Shown: positions 1-10,949 of the stretch, piece by piece
Position numbering within the stretch: position 1 is the first letter of the stretch
Layout of the letters: every line of letters starts with the position of its first letter
NCBI GenBank assembly: GCA_024402405.1
Contig: JAKSTW010000001.1
Span: forward strand, 3,734 to 67,733
Length of the DNA: 64,000 nucleotides
Direction of reading: 5' to 3'
Source: Spirochaetia bacterium
GTDB taxonomy: Bacteria > Spirochaetota > Spirochaetia > CADAEX01
Translations under genes and position numbers: made by a program
The notes under the pieces: model-generated
Seen by the model: only the letters and a program-made list of their open reading frames with translations
Database searches by the model: none
Told to the model about the DNA's origin: nothing

Positions 1-479
1 AAATACGATGTGAACTTCTGGAAAGTTATAACAGCTTCTTTATTCAGTTCTTGTATGTTATTTTTTCCGAACCACTCTGGAAGAATATCGTTGAACAGAT
101 CTTTTGGAGTCGCAGCGTTCAAAGCTGCAAATCTCTTATCAGAACTGAATAATTTCAATATTGCTGTCCGAAGTTTTGACTGTTCTTTCTCAAGAAGAGT
201 ATCATCTGCTTTATCTTTTGCATAATTTTCAATTTCTTTTGCAAGAACAGACCAATCAAATTCAGCATTTTGCAAGACATCATCAATAAAATACTGATGA
301 TAATTATCAATGATTCTTTTTACATCCTTATAGTCCTCAGACTTTTTTTTGTCTGATTCCAGAAACTTTCCCTTACGGATATTTTCTATTGTTTCAGCTT
401 TAGGTTTCAATTCAAATCTCAATGTCTTTGAGAGTGAATACCCATTTCCCTGACCACAAAACTGTTCAATACCACTCAT
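1..479 (-). CDS. cas12a: Type V-A CRISPR effector Cas12a (Cpf1), N-terminal 159 aa; truncated by window edge
   Basis: Manual translation from ATG 479 gives MSGIEQFCGQGNGYSLSKTLRFELKPKAETIENIRKGKFLESDKKKSEDYKDVKRIIDNYHQYFIDDVLQ...EAVITFQKFTSY, open to base 1. YSLSKTLRFEL-P, DYK-VK-IID-YH--FI and F--FTSY are hallmark Cas12a WED-I/REC1 motifs. Not in the ORF track because there is no stop in the window. Confidence 0.93.
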   Translation of the reverse strand, partial: MSGIEQFCGQGNGYSLSKTLRFELKPKAETIENIRKGKFLESDKKKSEDYKDVKRIIDNYHQYFIDDVLQNAEFDWSVLAKEIENYAKDKADDTLLEKEQSKLRTAILKLFSSDKRFAALNAATPKDLFNDILPEWFGKNNIQELNKEAVITFQKFTSY

Positions 480-1393
480 TTCTTCACCACTTCGGAAAGG
501 CTGCTTACCAGACCGGTCATGCTCTGGATCTCTGACGGAATGATTATCTTGGTGGACTGTCCCTCTCCTACTCGCTCAAAGGCTTCCAGACTACGCAGCT
601 TTATGACTGCATCATCCGGCTGGGCATTCCGCAGCAGCTTGATACCTTCTGCCTTGGCATTCTGCACTTCCACAATGGCCTCTGCCTCACCCTGAGCCCT
701 CTTGACAGCAGCTTCCTTGTCTGCCTCCGCACTCAGGATCCTGGCCTCTTTCTGTGCCTGTGCCTCCAGTATCATTGCCTGTTTCTTTCCTTCAGCCTCC
801 AGAATAGCACTCTGCTTGTGTCCCTCTGCAATAAGGATCTGCTCACGGCGCTCACGTTCGGCACGCATCTGCTTTTCCATGGCTTCTCTGATGGCATCCG
901 GCGGAATGATGTTCTTCACCTCAACACGGTTCACCTTGATTCCCCATGGGTCTGTGGCCTCATCCAGAATGCTTCTCATCTTTGTATTGATGACATCACG
1001 GCTGGTCAGTGTCTGATCCAGTTCCAGCTCTCCGATGATATTACGCAGTGTGGTTGCAGAAAGATTTTCCAGGGCATTTATAGGCTTCTCAACACCGTAT
1101 GTATACAGCTTCGGATCTGTGATCTGGAAATAGACCACAGTATCGATCATCATGGTCACATTATCCTTGGTGATCACAGGCTGCGGAGGGAAATCCAGGA
1201 CCTTCTCCTTCAGTGAGACACGGTTCACATAGCGGTCAATGAAAGGAACCTTCACATGCAGACCCACATTCCATGTCTTGTAATAAGCACCCAGCCTCTC
1301 AATGATCACAGCCTGAGACTGTGACACCAGCTTTATATTGAAAATTATTATCAGCAGAACCAGTCCGCAGAATCCCATAAAAACATTCATCAT
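476..1393 (-). CDS. SPFH/band-7 (stomatin, QmcA-like) membrane protein
   Basis: N-terminal TM helix, IIERLG, PPQPVITKDNV, WGIKVNRVEVKNI, coiled-coil AMEKQMRAERERR; SD AAGGAGG upstream. Confidence 0.95.
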   Translation of the reverse strand: MMNVFMGFCGLVLLIIIFNIKLVSQSQAVIIERLGAYYKTWNVGLHVKVPFIDRYVNRVSLKEKVLDFPPQPVITKDNVTMMIDTVVYFQITDPKLYTYGVEKPINALENLSATTLRNIIGELELDQTLTSRDVINTKMRSILDEATDPWGIKVNRVEVKNIIPPDAIREAMEKQMRAERERREQILIAEGHKQSAILEAEGKKQAMILEAQAQKEARILSAEADKEAAVKRAQGEAEAIVEVQNAKAEGIKLLRNAQPDDAVIKLRSLEAFERVGEGQSTKIIIPSEIQSMTGLVSSLSEVVKK

Positions 1394-1406
1394 CTTATTT
1401 TCCTCC

Positions 1407-1853
1407 TTAATATTCCTTTACGATCAGGGTATTTCCCTCTATATCCACGACCACGCACTTTGTCCCTATCTCCAGAACTTTGCCGTCCGCAGCCATGGCA
1501 TTCCATATCACTCCGTTTGAAGCCTTCACTGTCCCTTTGTCGAACTCAGTGATCCTTCCGGACACCAGTACATTTTTTCCCACCAGAGAGTCAGCATTAG
1601 TCCTGTACTTGCCAACCTTAAGCTTCCGCATGAAAAAAGATCTGGTGAACAGGATCAGCAGCACATTCAGAACTACAAAGATCACCACCTGAAGGCTGAA
1701 CACCAGTCCGGTCAGTGAAATAAAAATCAGTACAAAAGCACTGATGGCACTCCAGATAGTCACCAGCCCCACAGTCATGGCCTCTATTATCACCGCCAGT
1801 ACCAGAACGCCGAACCAGAACCAGAACAGATGGCACATAAGAAATTCAATCAT
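1407..1853 (-). CDS. NfeD family membrane protein (short, YbbJ-like)
   Basis: Hydrophobic N-half plus C-terminal OB-like GVIWNA...VVDIEGNTLIV; classic SPFH partner; start moved to ATG 1853, which follows AAAGGAGG. Confidence 0.9.
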   Translation of the reverse strand: MIEFLMCHLFWFWFGVLVLAVIIEAMTVGLVTIWSAISAFVLIFISLTGLVFSLQVVIFVVLNVLLILFTRSFFMRKLKVGKYRTNADSLVGKNVLVSGRITEFDKGTVKASNGVIWNAMAADGKVLEIGTKCVVVDIEGNTLIVKEY

Positions 1854-1872
1854 CCATTCCCTCCTTTTTGTT

Positions 1873-1881
1873 ATTATAGCA
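1873..1881 (-). promoter_or_regulatory. Extended -10 promoter (TGcTATAAT) for nfeD-SPFH-cas12a
   Basis: Minus strand reads atatgcTATAATaacaaaaaggagggaatggATG. Confidence 0.6.
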
Positions 1882-1959: not shown

Positions 1960-2688
1960 ATGAAGATCACCCAGCAAGATGAAAGACTGGCAAAAGTCGA
2001 GAAAGAGCTTCTGCCGCAGATAAAAACAGCATTTGGAGAAAATCTCCATTCTGTAATCATTTATGGAAGTATCCTGACAAAGCAGTTCAATCCGCTCACC
2101 TCTGATGTCAATGTTCTGATCATTCCAAAAGAGGCTGATCCTGAACGTATTGTCGTGCTGGGAAAATACTGTGCCAAGACCTTCACTCAATACAAGATCA
2201 CACCTACAGTCATGAGCTGCAGGGAATTCATTGACTCCGCTGACGTATTTCCAATGGAATACCTGGATATAAAAGACAAGCACAAAACTATTTACGGGGA
2301 AGATATAACAGACCGGCTGGACATAACCACCAGAAATCTGCGTCATCAGGTGGAGGACAGGCTCCGCGGATGCATCAACTCGCTGCGTCAGGTTCTCATG
2401 CTCTCCGACAGCAGACCGCGGCTTCTGGCTCTGGGCGTTCGGAACACACATGGTCTCTACAATGCCATATTCCGGGCAATACTCAGACTGAAAAAACACC
2501 CGGAAGTATATTTCAGCTATAAGAACAACCTGACAGCATTATCAGAATATATCAACTTTGACATAGATCCATTCCTTCAGCTGCGCAGCATCAACAAGGA
2601 GACACCGCTGGAAAAAGTGATATGCGATGCCATTCTGCAGCTGCTCATAATAGTTGAGGATGTTGACAAAATGGAAGTGGACGGATGA
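1960..2688 (+). CDS. Nucleotidyltransferase-domain protein (Pol-beta-like fold)
   Basis: IYGS...SDVNVLII motif and DVFPMEYLDIK; first gene of the TPM-LemA operon. Confidence 0.75.
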   Translation: MKITQQDERLAKVEKELLPQIKTAFGENLHSVIIYGSILTKQFNPLTSDVNVLIIPKEADPERIVVLGKYCAKTFTQYKITPTVMSCREFIDSADVFPMEYLDIKDKHKTIYGEDITDRLDITTRNLRHQVEDRLRGCINSLRQVLMLSDSRPRLLALGVRNTHGLYNAIFRAILRLKKHPEVYFSYKNNLTALSEYINFDIDPFLQLRSINKETPLEKVICDAILQLLIIVEDVDKMEVDG

Positions 2689-3470
2689 AAAAAGTTCTCC
2701 TTCTTCTGTGCATCATCTGCCTCTGTCCGTTCATCACACTGGCTGACGATGTGCCCGACTATGTTGGTTTCGTCAACGATTTTGCCAATATCATCCCTGA
2801 AAAAGACAAGAGGATCATGAACACTGTGATCACGGAGCTCAGGGAAAAGACAAAGGCTGAGATCGCAGTGCTCACAGTAAAATCCATGGCGCCATATACG
2901 GTCATTGAGGATTTTTCCATGGCCGTGGCGGAGAAATGGAAAGTAGGCTCCAAGGATGATGAGGGAATAATACTGGTCCTGGCACTGGAAGAAAGGCAGA
3001 TCCGTCTGGAAGTGGGTTACGGACTTGAGGGCATAATAAATGACGCCATGGCTGGGCGGATCCTCAGGAACAATATAATTCCATTCTTCAATGGCGGAGA
3101 ATACGGTACAGGTCTGCGCCATGGTGTATGCAAGATAGCAGATATAATCAGCAAGGAAAAAGGCGTTGAGCTGGAAGAGAATCCGGTGATGGACAACAAG
3201 CAGAGTGAGAGCATATGCCTGCTGATTTTCATGGGTGTTGTAATCTATATACTGATCATGGCTAACAGGAGAAGGATCTCCTCCAGCCGTACAGGAAGGA
3301 AATATTACGGTGGAAGTTTCGGAGGAATGCATTCCGGACGCGGCAGCGGACGGGGCAGTTTCGGCGGATTCGATGGCGGCAGTTTCGGCGGCTACGGAGG
3401 CTTTGGCGGAGGTGGCGGCGGATTCGGCGGCGGTGGGTTCGGCGGTGGCGGAGCTTCCAGCGGATTCTGA
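2685..3470 (+). CDS. TPM-domain (YgcG-like) protein with Gly-rich tail
   Basis: Signal peptide, FVNDFANII, IRLEVGYGLEG, TM helix, GGFGGGGASSGF end. Confidence 0.92.
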   Translation: MKKVLLLLCIICLCPFITLADDVPDYVGFVNDFANIIPEKDKRIMNTVITELREKTKAEIAVLTVKSMAPYTVIEDFSMAVAEKWKVGSKDDEGIILVLALEERQIRLEVGYGLEGIINDAMAGRILRNNIIPFFNGGEYGTGLRHGVCKIADIISKEKGVELEENPVMDNKQSESICLLIFMGVVIYILIMANRRRISSSRTGRKYYGGSFGGMHSGRGSGRGSFGGFDGGSFGGYGGFGGGGGGFGGGGFGGGGASSGF

Positions 3471-3482
3471 AAGGAGAGAAAG

Positions 3483-4049
3483 ATGAAGAATAAAGGATTT
3501 ACAGCAGTACTGGTATTTATCGTTGCCATCGTGGCAGTCGTAGGCTGGTACTTCAGCACAAGAAACAAACTGGTGACACTGGAAGAGGATACATCCTCAG
3601 CATGGGCAGAGATCGACAATCAGCTCCAGCGCCGCTGCGACCTGATACCAAACCTGGTGAACACAGTGAAGGGTTATGCAAAGCATGAGAGCGAAGTTTT
3701 CGGCAACATTGCTGAAGCCAGATCTAAGCTGGCAGGTGCCCAGACAGTAGAAGAGAAATCTGAAGGCTACAACGAGCTCCAGGGTGCACTGAGCAGACTG
3801 CTCATGGTCGTGGAAAATTATCCTGAACTTAAGAGCAATGCAAACTTCCAGCAGCTTCAGGACGAGCTGGCAGGAACAGAAAACCGCATCGCAGTTGCCA
3901 GAAAACGCTATAACGACAAGGTGCGCAGTTTCAATACTCAGATAAAGGTCTTCCCATCATCTTTTGTAGCAGAGAGAATGGGACTGGAGAAAAAATCCTA
4001 CTTTGAGATCGCAGAATCAGCAAGAGCTGTTCCGAAGGTAGAGTTCTGA
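3483..4049 (+). CDS. lemA: LemA family protein
   Basis: QLQRRCDLIPNLVNTVKGYA, ENYPELKS, LAGTENRIAVARKRYN. Confidence 0.95.
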   Translation: MKNKGFTAVLVFIVAIVAVVGWYFSTRNKLVTLEEDTSSAWAEIDNQLQRRCDLIPNLVNTVKGYAKHESEVFGNIAEARSKLAGAQTVEEKSEGYNELQGALSRLLMVVENYPELKSNANFQQLQDELAGTENRIAVARKRYNDKVRSFNTQIKVFPSSFVAERMGLEKKSYFEIAESARAVPKVEF

Positions 4050-5075
4050 TTCCATTATTGTCTTGAGAATCCCCTTGTGGTAACTCCAGGAAACATTTTT
4101 TCCTGCCATGAGGGGAACCACTCCGTCTATTTCATCAGGGATCCTGAATCCGGCTTTAACCAGAGTGATCTTATCCTCAGACACAGGCAGCCCATAAAAT
4201 TCAGGACCGAACACGGACATAAAGTTTTCCAGTTTATCCAGACAGCCGTATTGCTCAAAAAGCTCAGCCATCAGCGGAACAGCACATGGGGCAGAATAAA
4301 TGCCGCCGCCGGCAGAACCTGATTCCTTTTTTATCCTCAGATGAGGCGCACTGTCAGATCCGAAAAAGAATTTCTTATTCCCGGAAAAGGCAGCTTCCCG
4401 TATGGCAGCTCTGTCCCTTTCAGTCTTAACTACAGGTTTGCAGAAATTATGGGGATTCATATTGCCGCCTATCACATCATCCAGAGTCAGCAGCAGATGA
4501 TGGGCAGTGATGGTTCCGGCTATATTTTCCCCCATGCCATCCACCAGATCAATAGAACGACGGTCAGAAATATGTTCAAACACGATCTTCAGATCAGGAA
4601 AAGCTTTGGCTATCGCACGGAATTCGCTGTGATATTTATATTCCCTGTCCAGACAATATGCATCAGGTCTTTCACAATGGATGGAAAGGATCATCCCCAG
4701 ATCACACATAGTGGCCAAGGCTATCTTGATATTATGCCAGGTCTTTACGCCATCCTCGGAATTTGTCGTAGCTCCTGCAGGATAAAGCTTACCCACGGCA
4801 GCACCGGCATCATGGAGCTTTCTGACAACAGAACTTTTCATCCCGGGCAGCAGCTTGAAGGACATGACTGTTCTGAAATCCGGATTCAGCTTTCTGATCT
4901 GCCCGGCATAATCTGTCAGCCTTTCAGGAGTGCTTACAGGCGGAATCGTATTGGGCATGACCAGCCCGCCGCAGAACCATTTTGACTGATCCCGCACTGT
5001 AGTGGCCAGCAGTTCTCCCTGCCGGAGATGCATATGCATATCATAAGGTTTCCGCATCGTAAAGCTATTTTCCAT
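4017..5075 (-). CDS. pyrC: Dihydroorotase (homodimeric, E. coli type)
   Basis: DMHMHLR, MPNT, KLYPAGATTNS, FEHIS, FCKPVVK, GSDSAPH. Confidence 0.93.
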   Translation of the reverse strand: MENSFTMRKPYDMHMHLRQGELLATTVRDQSKWFCGGLVMPNTIPPVSTPERLTDYAGQIRKLNPDFRTVMSFKLLPGMKSSVVRKLHDAGAAVGKLYPAGATTNSEDGVKTWHNIKIALATMCDLGMILSIHCERPDAYCLDREYKYHSEFRAIAKAFPDLKIVFEHISDRRSIDLVDGMGENIAGTITAHHLLLTLDDVIGGNMNPHNFCKPVVKTERDRAAIREAAFSGNKKFFFGSDSAPHLRIKKESGSAGGGIYSAPCAVPLMAELFEQYGCLDKLENFMSVFGPEFYGLPVSEDKITLVKAGFRIPDEIDGVVPLMAGKNVSWSYHKGILKTIMESELYLRNSSC

Positions 5076-5132
5076 ATAAACTCCCTTTCCTTTACTATAA
5101 GTTTAAAGTATAATCTTTGCAAGGAGATAGAA

Positions 5133-6104
5133 ATGGCAGGTAAAAAAGTACTGGTTGCCCTTGATGTGGAAGAAAGGCACAAAAAAACTCTGGAAAGTGC
5201 ATATCCGGAAGGAGAATTCATCTATTGCGGCAGCAAGGGTTATGAGCCATTTCTGTCACAGGCAAATATAATCATAGGCGATATCAAGCCTGCCATGCTC
5301 AGACAGGCCGTAAACCTGGAATGGCTCCAGACTCCTAATGCGGGAGTGGATCCATTTACCAGCAATATCGATATGATTCCTGAGAATCTGATCCTGACCT
5401 GTGCAACAGGTTCTTATGGTCTTGCCATATCAGAATACATGCTGGGCTGTGTCCTGTCCCTCATGAAACATCTGGACAGATACAGGATCAACCAGACGAA
5501 ACACCTGTGGAAAGATGAGGGACATGTGACCTCTATCCAGGGAAGCACCACACTGGTAGTCGGAATGGGAGACATCGGCAGTGATTTCGGCAGGAAAATG
5601 CACCTGCTGGGCAGCACTGTGTATGGCATCCGCAGGCATCAGGCACCAAAGCCTGACTGGGCTGAGGCAGTATATACCATGGATGCACTGGACGATCTCC
5701 TTGGCAGGGCTGATATTGTGGCACTGTGTCTTCCGAAGACTCCATCCACCATACATCTCATGGATATGGCTAAATTCAGGAAAATGAAAAAAACAGCCAT
5801 TCTTGTAAATATAGGCAGAGGAGCAGCCATAATGACTGACGACCTGTGCACAGCCCTGAATCAGCACATAATAGCAGGTGCTGCAGTTGATGTGACAGAC
5901 CCGGAACCACTCCCTCCTGATCACCCACTGTGGGATGCAGAGAACATAATCATCACCCCGCATACATCAGGACAGAACCACCTGCCGGAGACCTTCGAAC
6001 GGATCATCAGGCTGAGTGCAAGAAATCTGGCACTTTACAAAGAGGGAAAGCCGCTGGAAAGCCAAGTGGATCTCAAAGCTGGCTATAGAATATACAGAGG
6101 CTGA
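5133..6104 (+). CDS. D-2-hydroxyacid dehydrogenase family protein
   Basis: GMGDIG, VNIGRG, DVTDPEPLP, ITPHTSG; start ATG 5133 after AAGGAG. Confidence 0.9.
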   Translation: MAGKKVLVALDVEERHKKTLESAYPEGEFIYCGSKGYEPFLSQANIIIGDIKPAMLRQAVNLEWLQTPNAGVDPFTSNIDMIPENLILTCATGSYGLAISEYMLGCVLSLMKHLDRYRINQTKHLWKDEGHVTSIQGSTTLVVGMGDIGSDFGRKMHLLGSTVYGIRRHQAPKPDWAEAVYTMDALDDLLGRADIVALCLPKTPSTIHLMDMAKFRKMKKTAILVNIGRGAAIMTDDLCTALNQHIIAGAAVDVTDPEPLPPDHPLWDAENIIITPHTSGQNHLPETFERIIRLSARNLALYKEGKPLESQVDLKAGYRIYRG

Positions 6105-6113
6105 GGAGATAAT

Positions 6114-7262
6114 ATGACAGCAGAAAGAGTCGCTAATTCAGAAACCACAATATTCACAGTGGTGAACACACTGGCAGCAAAATATAATGCGGTGGGACTC
6201 AGCCAGGGAGCTCCTGACTTTGACACACCGGCATGGGTCCTCGACATAGTGCGTGAAGCCTTCACACTGGGACGGAATCAGTATGCACCGCTGTCAGGAG
6301 TACCTGAGTTCAGACAGGCTATCAGTGATGTATACAGCAGAAAATACGATCTGCATTTCAACCCGAACACACAGATCACAGTGACCAGCGGAGCCACTGA
6401 AGCGATCTTTGACAGCGTCATGGCTGTGTGCGACCCAGGCGATGAGCTTATAGTATTCGAGCCTTTCTTTGATTCATATGCAGGCAGCGCAAAAATGGCA
6501 GGCTGCCGCATGAAAGCCGTTACTCTCCATCTGCCGGACTTCACATTTGACAGAAAAGAGCTGGAAAATGCCATAACACCTAAGACAAAAGCCATTCTCA
6601 TAAACAATCCGAACAATCCGTCAGGCAAGGTCTATTCAAGAGAAGAACTGACTGTGATATCAGAAATAGCCAATAAATACGATCTGACAGTCATAAGTGA
6701 TGAGGTCTATGAGAATCTTGTGTTTGATGGTTTGAAACACATTCCTACAGCATCAATACCAGGACTTGAGAACAGGACCATAACAATAAATTCCACAGCC
6801 AAGACATTTTCTGCCACAGGCTGGAAAATAGGTTATATATGTGCCCCTGAATATCTGACCGCCGCAGTTCAGGCTGTCCACCAGTGGGTCACTTTCGCAG
6901 TGAATACCCCTATTCAGATAGCATTTTCCAAGATTCTTCCACAGGCAGACAGATACTCAGCTGATTTCTGCACAGAAATGGAAAAGCGGAGAAATTATCT
7001 TCTGGAAAGATCTGCGAACTGGGGATTTGATCCGATAAGACCTTCCGGCTCATATTTCTTCATGGCCACATTCGGCAAACTGTCAGCATCAAGTGACATG
7101 GATTTTATGGAGCAGCTTATCCGTGAAAGACACGTGGCACTGATTCCGGCATCACCGTTCTACCTGAATGCCAAAGATGAAGGACAGAAACTGCTGAGAT
7201 TCAACTTCGTCAAATCAATGGCAGCCCTTGAGCAGGCTGATAAAAATATGACAATGTTCTGA
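6114..7262 (+). CDS. PLP aminotransferase class I/II (YbdL/methionine aminotransferase-like)
   Basis: LSQGAPDF, NNPNNPSG, SDEVY, STAKTFSATGWKIG. Confidence 0.9.
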   Translation: MTAERVANSETTIFTVVNTLAAKYNAVGLSQGAPDFDTPAWVLDIVREAFTLGRNQYAPLSGVPEFRQAISDVYSRKYDLHFNPNTQITVTSGATEAIFDSVMAVCDPGDELIVFEPFFDSYAGSAKMAGCRMKAVTLHLPDFTFDRKELENAITPKTKAILINNPNNPSGKVYSREELTVISEIANKYDLTVISDEVYENLVFDGLKHIPTASIPGLENRTITINSTAKTFSATGWKIGYICAPEYLTAAVQAVHQWVTFAVNTPIQIAFSKILPQADRYSADFCTEMEKRRNYLLERSANWGFDPIRPSGSYFFMATFGKLSASSDMDFMEQLIRERHVALIPASPFYLNAKDEGQKLLRFNFVKSMAALEQADKNMTMF

Positions 7263-7269
7263 AATTTCC

Positions 7270-8019
7270 ATGGAATATTTTAAATTCGGATCAGGAAAGA
7301 AAACATTTGTCATCATACCAGGAATTTCATTGAAAAGTATCATGCCGCAGAAATCGGCTATAGCCAATATGTATTCTAAATTTGCAGAAAAATACACAAT
7401 ATATTTATTTGACAGAGAAAAAGAGCTGAAAACAGACTGTACTGTAATGGATATGGCGGAAGATACAGCACGTGCAATGAAAGAGCTTGGGCTCTCCAAT
7501 GCTTGCATAACGGGAGCATCCCAAGGAGGAATGATAGCCCTTTATCTGGCAGCATACCATCCGGAGCTGGTATATAAGGCTGTGATAGCAGGTTCTGCAT
7601 CCAGATGTACTGACCATTCCAAAGTGACCTTTCAGCGATGGATCAGATATGCAGAAAAAAAAGATATCAGAAGTCTGATAGCTGATTTCTGCAAGATACT
7701 TTATACTGACAATTTCTGCAGTCAATTCCAAGATTCCATAATTGCCGCCAATATGGATGCCACAGAGCATGATCTGAAGCATTTCATCATTCTATGTCAG
7801 GCATGTATAGATTTTGACTTCTACAATGAACTAGATGCTATAAAACGCCCTCTGCTGGTTCTTGGAGCTGACAAGGATACTGTTTTCGGACCTAATGCCT
7901 CTGTAGAAATAGCAGAAAAGACAGGATGTCAGTCTTACATATATAAAAATTATAAACATGCTGTTTATGATGAGGCCCCTGATTTCCTTCAGCGAATGCT
8001 GGACTTTTTTGCATCCTGA
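7270..8019 (+). CDS. Alpha/beta hydrolase
   Basis: GASQGG nucleophile elbow, ADKD, H near C-terminus. Confidence 0.85.
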   Translation: MEYFKFGSGKKTFVIIPGISLKSIMPQKSAIANMYSKFAEKYTIYLFDREKELKTDCTVMDMAEDTARAMKELGLSNACITGASQGGMIALYLAAYHPELVYKAVIAGSASRCTDHSKVTFQRWIRYAEKKDIRSLIADFCKILYTDNFCSQFQDSIIAANMDATEHDLKHFIILCQACIDFDFYNELDAIKRPLLVLGADKDTVFGPNASVEIAEKTGCQSYIYKNYKHAVYDEAPDFLQRMLDFFAS

Positions 8020-8025
8020 TTTTAT

Positions 8026-8050
8026 AAAAAGCCCCGGAATGATCCGGGGC
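8026..8050 (-). terminator. Intrinsic terminator (GCCCCGG-6-CCGGGGC + T tract)
   Basis: Hairpin between convergent genes, T5 on minus strand. Confidence 0.75.
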
Positions 8051-8068
8051 ATATATTAAGCCGATCTA

Positions 8069-9649
8069 TTACTTTTCAGAATATTCATCCATAAGCCGGT
8101 CAATAAAAGACTTATAGGCATCGAATATCTGATGATTTTTTTCATCTTCAATAAATGCCACAGAAGCATTTCCCTTGTCATGACAGCCATCCATTTTCAG
8201 ATTGCATGAACCGCATATCGTCACATATTTCTGTCTGCCGTTCAACTTGTATGACATAAGCATTTCCTTGCAATGAGTCCTCAGTTTGTGATCCACTTTA
8301 TAATACAGGGCATTTCCATCAGAGATCATTTTCAGACCGGACAGGAATCCTGCATCGCTTCCGAATCTGTGCTTTGCATTGGTGCTGGTCTCAACGATCC
8401 ACTTCATTGTCAGAGGACTTTCAGCATCAGGTCTCAGAGTGCCTGCTGTAATTGCAGCCTGATCAGCAGCCTGTGCCTCAAGATCGTAATGGTCATCAGT
8501 ATCAGGCAGACCGTTTCCATTAGGATATGCCGGTGTATATGATGGACCAAAATAAAGTTTCTTCAGAGTCTTGAAAACTTTCCAGCCCATAAGATCATTC
8601 CCGGCTGTCTTATAGTGATACATATTGGCATAAAACATCCTAGGCCCGACATCAGAAGCCGCCATCTCATCAAGATATTTTGCAAACATATTATTATCAG
8701 TATCCCATGCAGTCTCTTTATTTCCATCTGCATAAGTCTGGTTATAATAAAAAGAATCATATTCCTCGACCGACTGCACCGGGCTGAACTGAGTCCGTAT
8801 ATACTTACCGGAATAATCAAGCCCTTCCTTATGAGCCGCCCTTACATCTTCCTGGAATTTAGCCTGATTCTCATTGTTTGCAAAAATAATGGCATGATAT
8901 TTATTGAACGCCTCATAAAGTCCCGCGTTGCCAGTCAGCAGCATACCATCCTGATTTCTGTCCTGAGCCGGTTTGAACGCATCATTCTCCAGACCGTCAA
9001 TATTGCTGGAAGCCACATAAACCACATTGGAGACTGTCTTTCCGGCATCATTCTTAATTTTATTCACCGTCAGAAATTTACAGTGCATCTGCTGTTCGGA
9101 CTTACTTCCCCAGGTGATATAGCGATAATTCAGATAATCACTGACCTTACCGATTCCATCATTGCACAATTCATCTTTATGAGTATTGATCTCAGCGGAA
9201 ACATCGGAGTGAGCGACAAAATTCACAGTAATATTATTCTTTGCCAGCCGTACCAGGGATTCCACGATATTCTCTGTCCGTCCCTCCACCGGGGTTGAGG
9301 TAATCTCACCATATTTCTCATCGTTCTGATCAAAATAAAACAATGTGGTCAGCGAAAGATTATACATGGCAAAATTCAGCACCACATCTTTCTGCGGTGC
9401 AGACTGCTTATAATTTATAGCCTGGTTGATGACATCCACATATTTAAAAAGTGGCTGACATGGATATTCCTTCACTTCTCTCTGGTAAACTTTTACAGTT
9501 GTCCTATCAGGAAAAGTCTTGCATGTCACTGCCGGAATTCTATCCTGAACAGCACCATTGTCAGACTTTTCGCTTCCAGATGAAGCACAACCGCACAACA
9601 ATATACTGCCTATAAGCATAACAAGCAGTAACGATCCGAACTTTTTCAT
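8069..9649 (-). CDS. Lipoprotein with two phospholipase D-like (HKD-type) domains
   Basis: MKK signal with lipobox LLCG-C; MHCKFLTVN...ASSN and THCKEMLMS...GSCN; start ATG 9649 after GGAGG. Confidence 0.7.
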   Translation of the reverse strand: MKKFGSLLLVMLIGSILLCGCASSGSEKSDNGAVQDRIPAVTCKTFPDRTTVKVYQREVKEYPCQPLFKYVDVINQAINYKQSAPQKDVVLNFAMYNLSLTTLFYFDQNDEKYGEITSTPVEGRTENIVESLVRLAKNNITVNFVAHSDVSAEINTHKDELCNDGIGKVSDYLNYRYITWGSKSEQQMHCKFLTVNKIKNDAGKTVSNVVYVASSNIDGLENDAFKPAQDRNQDGMLLTGNAGLYEAFNKYHAIIFANNENQAKFQEDVRAAHKEGLDYSGKYIRTQFSPVQSVEEYDSFYYNQTYADGNKETAWDTDNNMFAKYLDEMAASDVGPRMFYANMYHYKTAGNDLMGWKVFKTLKKLYFGPSYTPAYPNGNGLPDTDDHYDLEAQAADQAAITAGTLRPDAESPLTMKWIVETSTNAKHRFGSDAGFLSGLKMISDGNALYYKVDHKLRTHCKEMLMSYKLNGRQKYVTICGSCNLKMDGCHDKGNASVAFIEDEKNHQIFDAYKSFIDRLMDEYSEK

Positions 9650-9740
9650 ATTTTCCTCCATAAATATCCAAATCTGATAAAATTGTGGATTGCATATTTT
9701 CAGCAAACAAGTCAGGAAAAATACTTAATTTAACGGTATT

Positions 9741-10949
9741 TTATGCGTTTTTCCTTTCCAGACGGGCCAGAATAAATATGGAGAACATGATCAGAGGGAC
9801 CATCACCAGTGCGATTCCTGTAAAATCATTGGTGACAGCATAAATGGCATACCCCAGGAACGGACCGGCAGCACTGCCGGCATCCTGAAATGTGGAGAAA
9901 CGGTTCATGAACAGTGCCTGCTCCCCAGGAAGTGAGCTTTTTCCGGCATAGGCTGTACGAAGCACCTGAGTGGCTGACTCAGTCACCAGGTCCAGCACCA
10001 GCAGACCAAGAACGATATACCAGAGTCTGAAAACAGCAAACAGAATGATGATCGCAGCCTGTCCGGTCATTGATATGATCAGAGGTCTGCGGCATCCGAA
10101 CTTATCTCCGAAATAACCGAATATAGGGGCAGCCATCATGATCACAGGTGTCAGCATGGCAAAAAAACCTGCGAAAGTGGCAGCTCCGATGTTCAGCCCG
10201 GAACCTGGCAGTATGACATCAACTATCAGACGCCCTCTGAGTGATGTGGTCATCGTCGATGCAGTGGCAGTGACAAAAGTGACCAGCCCGACGATCAGCA
10301 GCATTCCGATATTTGAAATATGCATTCTGGACTTGGATTTTTTCTTATCATCCACCACTGCCGGTTCAGCCACAGCAGTATCTCTCCACATCTGCTCCTG
10401 ATTTCTGATGAAGAAAAGGCTGCCGAAAATCAGTGCTGCGAAAATCACCGGGACTGCCAGCGGATTCAGCATATCAGCCAGGAATCCTGACAGAATCATC
10501 ATCACCCTGTAAATACCTGATTTTATTGTGGCAAACCAGCCCATCAGCCGTCCCACATTCTCATCAGAAGAAACCCTGAGAGTAGCGATATAAGCCTCGA
10601 TGCGCAGCAGTGAAAAACAGGCGCCCCAGAGGATGCGCAGTGCAAGCAGCCACCAGAATCCCAATGGAATGGCATATCCCAGAGTGACGAATGCGGCCAT
10701 CCAGACACCTGCAACCAGTGGTTTATATGACTCTGTTCCTGCCACAATAAAATTGGAAAGTTCGTTGGTAATAAGGCGGATAAAACGGTTTACTGACAGC
10801 AATATTCCGATCTGGAATACAGTTATCCTGAAATTTTCAGGAGTGACGGGAAGAATGCAGTACATCATCGCATCGCCGGACATTGCCAGTCCAACTATTA
10901 TAGAAATAAGTATGAATGTCTTGGTATCTCTGCTTACCTTCTTCATCAT
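9741..10949 (-). CDS. MFS transporter (paralog 1)
   Basis: About 12 TM segments, GILLSVNRFIR, GYFGDKFG, TFQDAGSAAGP. Confidence 0.9.
   Translation of the reverse strand: MMKKVSRDTKTFILISIIVGLAMSGDAMMYCILPVTPENFRITVFQIGILLSVNRFIRLITNELSNFIVAGTESYKPLVAGVWMAAFVTLGYAIPLGFWWLLALRILWGACFSLLRIEAYIATLRVSSDENVGRLMGWFATIKSGIYRVMMILSGFLADMLNPLAVPVIFAALIFGSLFFIRNQEQMWRDTAVAEPAVVDDKKKSKSRMHISNIGMLLIVGLVTFVTATASTMTTSLRGRLIVDVILPGSGLNIGAATFAGFFAMLTPVIMMAAPIFGYFGDKFGCRRPLIISMTGQAAIIILFAVFRLWYIVLGLLVLDLVTESATQVLRTAYAGKSSLPGEQALFMNRFSTFQDAGSAAGPFLGYAIYAVTNDFTGIALVMVPLIMFSIFILARLERKNA

Follow-up and report, generated by a model that had tools for sequence, protein, structure and literature searches.

How does a CRISPR (clustered and regularly interspaced short palindromic repeats) effector gene come to be expressed when its start codon overlaps the stop codon of a membrane-protein gene, and does that neighbour belong to the immune system at all? 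The question is raised by the left end of a 64,000-nucleotide (nt) stretch of DNA (hereafter, the window; contig JAKSTW010000001.1, C1:3734-67733) from the 1.52 Mb, 53-contig genome of a Treponema-like gut spirochaete, Spirochaetia bacterium (GCA_024402405.1; hereafter G000), where cas12a directly follows an nfeD-SPFH gene pair. The most probable answer, to which a probability of roughly 0.65 is assigned, is that the cas genes form the distal part of an nfeD-SPFH-cas polycistron, which would be read from the nfeD promoter and would have arisen through locus turnover in a chromosomal hotspot. As part of this explanation, SPFH and NfeD are probably neighbours of the CRISPR-Cas locus and not components of it.

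The cas12a gene is real and intact. The minus-strand open reading frame (ORF) at window positions 3 to 479 is open at the window edge and continues on the contig, uninterrupted, to a stop at C1:238. In an NCBIfam profile search its product matches the Cas12a/Cpf1 model TIGR04330 over residues 12-1321 of 1324 with 1263.8 bits (cutoff 300); solved Cas12a chains in the PDB are matched with E-values down to 0, and the 159 residues encoded within the window match Pfam REC1. In an alignment of three sequences (this protein and two other Cas12a proteins), Asp916 (D916, IGLDRGER), Glu1009 (E1009, MEDLNFGFK), and Asp1275 (D1275, DADANGA) are invariant, and these residues are taken here to be the RuvC catalytic acidic triad. 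Position 479 is the first possible start in the frame, and the N-terminus lines up with those of 70-odd homologues (M, about five residues, then FCGQxNGYSxSKTLRFEL). Canonical Cas12a proteins (FnCas12a, AsCas12a, and LbCas12a; PDB 5ng6, 5b43, and 5xus among others) are resembled in the full-length match, the RuvC positions, and the N-terminal SKTLRFEL, but the closest Cas12a found, that of L017, a Treponemataceae metagenome-assembled genome (MAG), is 81% identical; the L017 locus has a different upstream context, and shares nucleotide similarity with G000 only within the cas12a ORF.

An earlier reading of the window alone (the original prediction) had placed the start of a Cas12a gene at 479, overlapping the SPFH stop as ATGA, with no space for a promoter or terminator of its own and with a step in base composition at the junction. 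Each of these points stands. The family match and the unbroken frame to the left of the window, with its invariant acidic positions, establish the gene; the overlap is confirmed by direct reading (Table 1); and successive intergenic distances are 13 nt from nfeD to SPFH, -4 nt from SPFH to cas12a, and 19 nt from cas12a to the next gene, cas12a2. The guanine-plus-cytosine (GC) fraction, taken in 200-nt windows, is 0.30-0.36 over positions 1-500 and 0.545-0.555 over 501-900, and whole-gene values are 0.361 for cas12a and 0.496 for SPFH, against 0.41-0.47 for the contigs. Start and stop codons that overlap by 4 nt are themselves frequent in this genome: crude ORF calls give 109 such cases among 912 neighbouring co-directional pairs. 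The weak Shine-Dalgarno-like GGTGA at the end of SPFH fits translation of cas12a coupled to that of SPFH.

Table 1. Features of the nfeD-SPFH-cas12a junction and of the cas locus to its left; positions refer to the window unless a contig is named.
Feature	Position	Strand	Basis or remark
cas12a, 5' part (first 159 codons)	1..479	-	full gene C1:238-4212, 1324 aa (amino acids), extends left of window
ATGA, cas12a ATG (479-477) over SPFH TGA (478-476)	476..479	-	plus strand reads tcat
Last SPFH codons with the sole Shine-Dalgarno-like stretch before cas12a, GGTGA in GAAGTGGTGAAGAA (weak)	480..495	-	direct reading
SPFH/Band-7 (stomatin/HflK-like) membrane protein, 305 aa	476..1393	-	Pfam Band_7, E 2e-37, residues 23-192
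Short NfeD membrane protein, 148 aa from ATG 1853	1407..1853	-	PF01957, E 3.8e-11
nfeD Shine-Dalgarno sequence AGGAGGG	1859..1865	-	direct reading
Extended -10 motif TGCTATAAT, candidate promoter of nfeD-SPFH and the cas genes behind	1873..1881	-	direct reading; function putative
cas12a2, 5' fragment	C1:1-218		runs off contig end
cas12a2, 3' fragment	C12:3-2192		5'-cut frame
CRISPR array	~C12:4107-5704		26 repeats

To the left of the window lies the remainder of a complete type V-A CRISPR-Cas locus, which comprises cas12a, cas12a2, cas4, cas1, cas2, and a 26-repeat array. The second gene begins past the cas12a stop with a 72-residue N-terminus (MENKYQISKTIRFGL...) that is cut by the end of C1, and contig C12 opens with a 730-aa frame that matches SuCas12a2 (PDB 8d49, E 9e-199, chain residues 528-1228); the next PDB match is Cas12a3 (E 4.5e-9), and no Cas12a chain is among the matches listed. 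Because residues 1-78 of the full Cas12a2 of locus L058 align to the end of C1 and residues 516-1274 to the start of C12, the two frames represent one cas12a2 gene split over both contigs. The gene is seen only as these two fragments, its middle of approximately 437 codons (~1.3 kb) being on no contig of the assembly, and linkage of C1 to C12 is based on the split gene together with synteny with another genome of the genus, G006. Profile searches of C12 identify cas4 (TIGR04328), cas1 (TIGR04329), and cas2 (TIGR01573), which lie, with cas12a2, within a few nt of one another or overlap. The 36-nt repeat (GTTTAATACTTATAAGAAATTTCTACTGTTGTAGAT, ending in TCTACTGTTGTAGAT) fits the V-A consensus (a 3' stem-loop of the form UCUACU-loop-GUAGAU), although this consensus had itself served as the search pattern. 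A YhbY gene and then the pyruvate carboxylase gene (pyc) follow 3' of the array. The original prediction had supposed that this cas12a departs from the usual position at the head of its own locus, with cas4, cas1, cas2, and an array to be sought to the left of the window; all of these are present on C12, and cas12a does head them. Only the 5' boundary of the locus is therefore unusual.

Tandem cas12a and cas12a2 genes that share a single array have been described in the available portion of Dmytrenko et al. (2023; PMC9811890), where Cas12a2 is an RNA-triggered collateral nuclease that causes abortive infection. The present locus is like those systems, as far as that portion describes them, in its gene content (cas12a, cas12a2, cas4-cas1-cas2, and one array, with repeats apparently of the V-A type) and in the match of its fragment to SuCas12a2, and the Bacteroidales locus L058 has the same tandem order. 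It differs in its host, a Treponema-like gut spirochaete, in the approximately 437 unassembled codons of cas12a2, and in lacking a 5' intergenic region where it abuts nfeD-SPFH. It is, in short, an ordinary V-A system in a slightly unusual position and gives no sign of a CRISPR system of a new kind; with it, the tandem arrangement gains an example from the Treponema lineage.

The two genes upstream are of a familiar type. SPFH has a hydrophobic N-terminus (MMNVFMGFCGLVLLIIIF) and an Ala/Glu-rich C-terminal half, as read from its translation, and its matches to HflK/HflC profiles fall below cutoff. As in other NfeD-SPFH (stomatin-like, YbbJ/QmcA-type) operons, a short NfeD gene stands directly upstream of the Band_7 gene, and the available text of one study (PMC2644673) describes an association of SPFH1 proteins with NfeD. 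A survey of 80 metagenome contigs with SPFH homologues of 65-85% identity found an nfeD homologue upstream of SPFH in 71. The true start of nfeD is most likely the ATG at 1853 and not that at 1913, because the N-termini of homologues begin there and AGGAGGG precedes it; the extended -10 motif TGCTATAAT (1881-1873) thus lies upstream of nfeD, where the original prediction had seen a promoter. The motif is not listed by the promoter scan because it has no -35 element at 16-18 nt. The equivalent site in G006 reads TTGAGT-16-TATAAT.

With no intergenic region 5' of cas12a, the nfeD promoter is the most likely source of cas transcripts. It is proposed that turnover of the locus or its effector at this site left cas12a in that state; transcription would start at TGCTATAAT and run through nfeD, SPFH, cas12a, cas12a2, cas4, cas1, and cas2, Cas12a would be translated by termination-reinitiation at the ATGA overlap, and the array would presumably be transcribed from its own leader promoter. 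Since GGTGA is the only, weak, Shine-Dalgarno-like stretch, translation of Cas12a in G000 probably needs ribosomes that terminate at the SPFH TGA. Simple consensus scans for promoters and terminators, compared with shuffled sequence, list no terminator-like site between nfeD and cas12a and no coding-strand promoter-like site within ~585 nt upstream of the cas12a ATG. The sister species, represented by G006 and by L047 (a strain of that species known from its own MAG contig, with 98.6% identity to G006), likewise has its best promoter-like site upstream of nfeD. Because this species keeps the linkage, with an 11-nt gap, the idea that cas12a captured an upstream promoter, which was one of two explanations offered in the original prediction, is the better one and probably correct.

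Several observations weigh against a polycistron read from nfeD. Both scans yield no more sites than shuffled sequence does, and the TGCTATAAT motif would leave nfeD a leader of only ~13 nt. The junction is tight in two species whose Cas12a proteins are only 42-46% identical, and selection may thus have favoured the linkage. Among the nine genomes of the genus, G000 included, nfeD-SPFH occurs only in G000, G004, G006, and G008, three of which carry an adjoining CRISPR locus, although these genomes are kin and the cases not independent. Assembled contigs of two DNA and two RNA sequencing runs were compared with C1:1-6000, and none bridges the SPFH-cas12a junction, which is uninformative on co-transcription and no evidence against the junction itself; RNA-library contigs hold pieces of SPFH only (X12) or pieces of a cas12a relative only (X18). 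Lastly, promoter matches of 9/12 do occur inside SPFH, 585 nt upstream of cas12a in G000 (TTGAGA-17-GAAAAT, coding strand, window ~1092-1064) and ~410 nt upstream in G006 (TGAACA-16-TATCAT).

These matches give rise to the main rival explanation, in which a separate cas promoter is concealed within the SPFH coding sequence, in its 3' half, ATGA is mere compaction, and expression is independent of the nfeD promoter. An intragenic cas promoter has been reported elsewhere, within cas1, in the available part of PMC12205988. However, shuffled sequence yields such matches just as often (14.8 expected where 15 were found, and 4.2 where 4 were found), they lie at non-equivalent positions in G000 and G006, and read-through from nfeD would occur regardless, no terminator-like site having been found. 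An internal promoter is therefore considered unlikely, if still the strongest competitor of transcription from nfeD.

The arrangement of the same site in related genomes indicates how the junction may have come about. A conserved 242-aa gene and pyc enclose what is a variable defence slot, because its occupants differ among genus genomes: type V-A, type II, McrBC/HicB, or none. Among the eight other genomes, SPFH orthologues (E up to 1e-40; 74-84% identity) are present in G004, G006, and G008, and Cas12a in G006 only, with 46% identity to that of G000. In G006 the order is nfeD, SPFH, 11 nt with a strong Shine-Dalgarno sequence (AAGGGGGAGAG), cas12a, a Bro-N/PDC-S13 gene, cas4, cas1, cas2, array, and pyc, and L047 has the same junction with the 11-nt gap. 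In G004 the SPFH stop is followed by two terminator-like hairpins, a promoter-like stretch (TTGTCA...TATAAT), and then a type II cas9-cas1-cas2 locus; in G008 a convergent gene lies behind SPFH. The remaining genomes with a described slot have neither nfeD-SPFH nor CRISPR, and carry an AMP-binding gene, together with McrBC and HicB (G005), with McrBC (G002), with HicB (G003), or alone (G001).

Some details of these neighbouring loci may be recorded here. The Bro-N gene of G006 (L013, G006:C5, 8864-9775, minus strand) occupies the place between cas12a and cas4 where G000 has cas12a2, and matches the PADLOC candidate PDC-S13 (E 3e-121). The type II locus of G004 (L015, G004:C11, 2901-7487) encodes a Cas9 of ~1100 aa. 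McrBC-like genes (AAA_5 plus McrBC) are found at L106 (G005, 6232-10564) and L107 (G002, 2276-5999), and G005 also has a HicB-like antitoxin gene.

It might be objected that the SPFH-cas12a junction is a chimera of metagenome assembly. The whole stretch is found only in the run marked as its possible source (0.99 of its words), and in the DNA runs X2 and X4 contigs from other samples that are at least 90% identical to the SPFH 3' end turn to unrelated sequence at L001 4209-4211 (window 476-478), exactly the junction. These breaks in other strains fit the variable slot and suggest strain-level variation of the element behind SPFH. Furthermore, G006 and L047, which are independent assemblies from the sister lineage, have the same gene order, the order of C1 plus C12 matches that of G006 from nfeD to pyc, and the two frames join exactly at ATGA, where they have no repeat in common that could mislead an assembler. 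A chimera is thus scarcely credible.

The base composition of the locus also bears on its origin. In both G000 and G006 the GC fraction of the whole cas locus is 0.29-0.40 (0.32-0.40 for the present locus), against 0.44-0.50 in the flanks, which fits the horizontal origin of cas12a that had been proposed in the original prediction. Between the two genomes, nucleotide similarity is 73% in SPFH, through the base before the ATG; the first ~2.2 kb of cas12a (the REC half) cannot be aligned; similarity resumes at 66% in the 3' part of cas12a and is 70% from cas4 through the array. Each Cas12a has a closer relative elsewhere than in the other genome (81% identity for G000 and 70% for G006). This pattern suggests turnover of the effector, or of its REC lobe, within a fixed locus. 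The two loci may instead have been acquired independently at one site, since Cas4, Cas1, and Cas2 are 67-78% identical among many Treponema loci. For the same reason, the 71-78% identity of these three proteins between G000 and G006 does not discriminate, and was rejected as proof of vertical descent of the adaptation module with a swapped effector. The G000 SPFH frame is one codon shorter than those of G006 and G004, its stop being supplied by ATGA, and this would fit a junction remade by the turnover event.

A comparable case is seen in two other Treponemataceae loci. L019 and L036 have a common upstream SIMPL/DUF541 gene and flanks that are 85-87% identical in nucleotides. Similarity between the two cas12a genes is confined to the first ~200 nt; the REC half is strongly diverged, and most of the gene either cannot be aligned or is 69-77% identical, a pattern that suggests an effector that is mosaic or has been replaced.

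If the link between nfeD-SPFH and cas genes reflected a working partnership, it would be expected to recur. SPFH lies in the upstream flank in only one of 80 Cas12a loci from species-representative genomes, that of L047 in the sister lineage. Conversely, Cas12a, Cas9, Cas1, Cas4, and Cas2 were found downstream of SPFH in none of the 57 SPFH loci whose downstream sequence extends to 1.5 kb or more, and it is in running on into cas genes that the operon of G000 differs from its relatives. The link is therefore lineage-specific and not recurring. Two minor results from the SPFH loci may be mentioned. In L149, Cas9-like and Cas1-like matches lie upstream of SPFH on the other strand. By a rule devised for this analysis, a terminator-like hairpin within 150 nt past the SPFH stop was counted in 15 of 76 loci against 43 of 500 random windows, a difference too weak to hold that SPFH normally ends its operon.

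The second explanation offered in the original prediction, that SPFH and NfeD are physical partners or accessories of a membrane-associated type V-A variant, fares poorly on this evidence. Adjacency and the start/stop overlap are all that speak for it. Outside one lineage the arrangement does not recur, and neither SPFH nor NfeD matches a PADLOC family (E up to 0.01). The match of the Cas12a protein to the standard family model runs over its whole length and leaves no additional domain, and the same SPFH gene precedes terminator-like hairpins and a separately promoted cas9 in G004 and a convergent gene in G008. In G006, SPFH has an in-frame TAG where L047 has CAG, with cas12a intact in both; the TAG may be a recent nonsense mutation or a sequencing error. 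No tie of SPFH or NfeD to prokaryotic CRISPR was found in the available portions of the literature. Membrane partnership is accordingly very improbable, and a functional membrane link to CRISPR immunity is not supported.

A further possibility is that the fusion is adaptive: with V-A effector expression tied to an operon for envelope stress or membrane quality control, immunity would rise upon perturbation of the membrane, as when a phage enters. That both species have a tight junction (-4 and 11 nt), despite the divergence of their Cas12a proteins, would agree with this, and envelope-stress control of CRISPR-Cas is known in principle from the Rcs phosphorelay of Serratia, as described in the available part of PMC8450108. 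In concept, that system provides a precedent for a tie between CRISPR expression and the state of the membrane, but as the same part presents it a transcription-factor cascade is at work there, whereas here it would be an operon fusion, and a stress response of the present operon is conjectural. On the other hand, the two species are kin and may reflect one event, 79 of 80 other Cas12a loci and 57 of 57 SPFH loci lack the link, and in G004 terminator-like hairpins insulate the CRISPR locus at the same site, which is served by a promoter of its own. An adaptive fusion is thus improbable, clearly more so than an internal promoter. Equally doubtful is its fullest form, in which one gut Treponema-like clade would have hard-wired Cas12a and the abortive-infection nuclease Cas12a2 into the nfeD-SPFH operon, with dosage following membrane status and with selection keeping the arrangement through effector turnover. 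If true, it would constitute an operon-level, regulator-free coupling of CRISPR immunity to the envelope.

The locus plainly exemplifies a cas operon that lacks a 5' regulatory region, is joined to a housekeeping membrane operon, and has been retained in this form by a sister species. It also reveals a chromosomal slot for defence genes that is occupied, depending on the species of the one genus, by V-A, type II, or McrBC genes, and in which the REC half of Cas12a has diverged strongly in place. If read-through from nfeD drives the cas genes, the locus would offer a simple natural model of how horizontally acquired CRISPR loci gain expression.

A cas12a gene in second position is not in itself rare. 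Among the 64 cas12a loci in which the start was usable and 400 nt or more of upstream sequence was present, ten have a same-strand ORF that ends no more than 32 nt before the cas12a start, two of these ORFs being short and doubtful. Since cas12a as the second gene of an operon is by this count fairly common, what is unusual in G000 is the kind of gene upstream. Pfam scans of six of the ten coupled loci identified HTH-WYL-WCX regulators (L022 and L026), XRE plus M78 peptidase (L080, L088, and L094), and RhuM (L087); L024 and L029 look near-identical to L022 upstream, although of these three only L022 was covered by the scan. These data suggest recurrent regulator-cas12a operons, with gaps of 0-32 nt, of the WYL-WCX type in Treponema (L022, L024, L026, and L029) and of the XRE plus M78 type in Bacteroidales (L080, L088, and L094). 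They share with G000 a same-strand gene that ends directly before cas12a, but there the gene encodes a DNA-binding regulator that recurs in several genomes, whereas here it encodes a membrane scaffold protein, and the link is confined to one lineage. Another cas12a locus, that of the Paludibacteraceae MAG L028, has a stop in the N-terminal frame of the gene at ~6001-6051 (...NIMF*IKTIGKTLEN...), and may be disrupted or mis-assembled.

On the other side of nfeD, the flank of the defence slot occupies window positions 1960-4049 on the plus strand and is a conserved cluster encoding a LemA protein, a TPM-domain protein, and the 242-aa protein. The last of these belongs to no Pfam family, occurs in all nine genomes of the genus, and has weak PADLOC matches to the candidate systems PDC-S09 and PDC-M05A (E 4e-6 to 1e-3).

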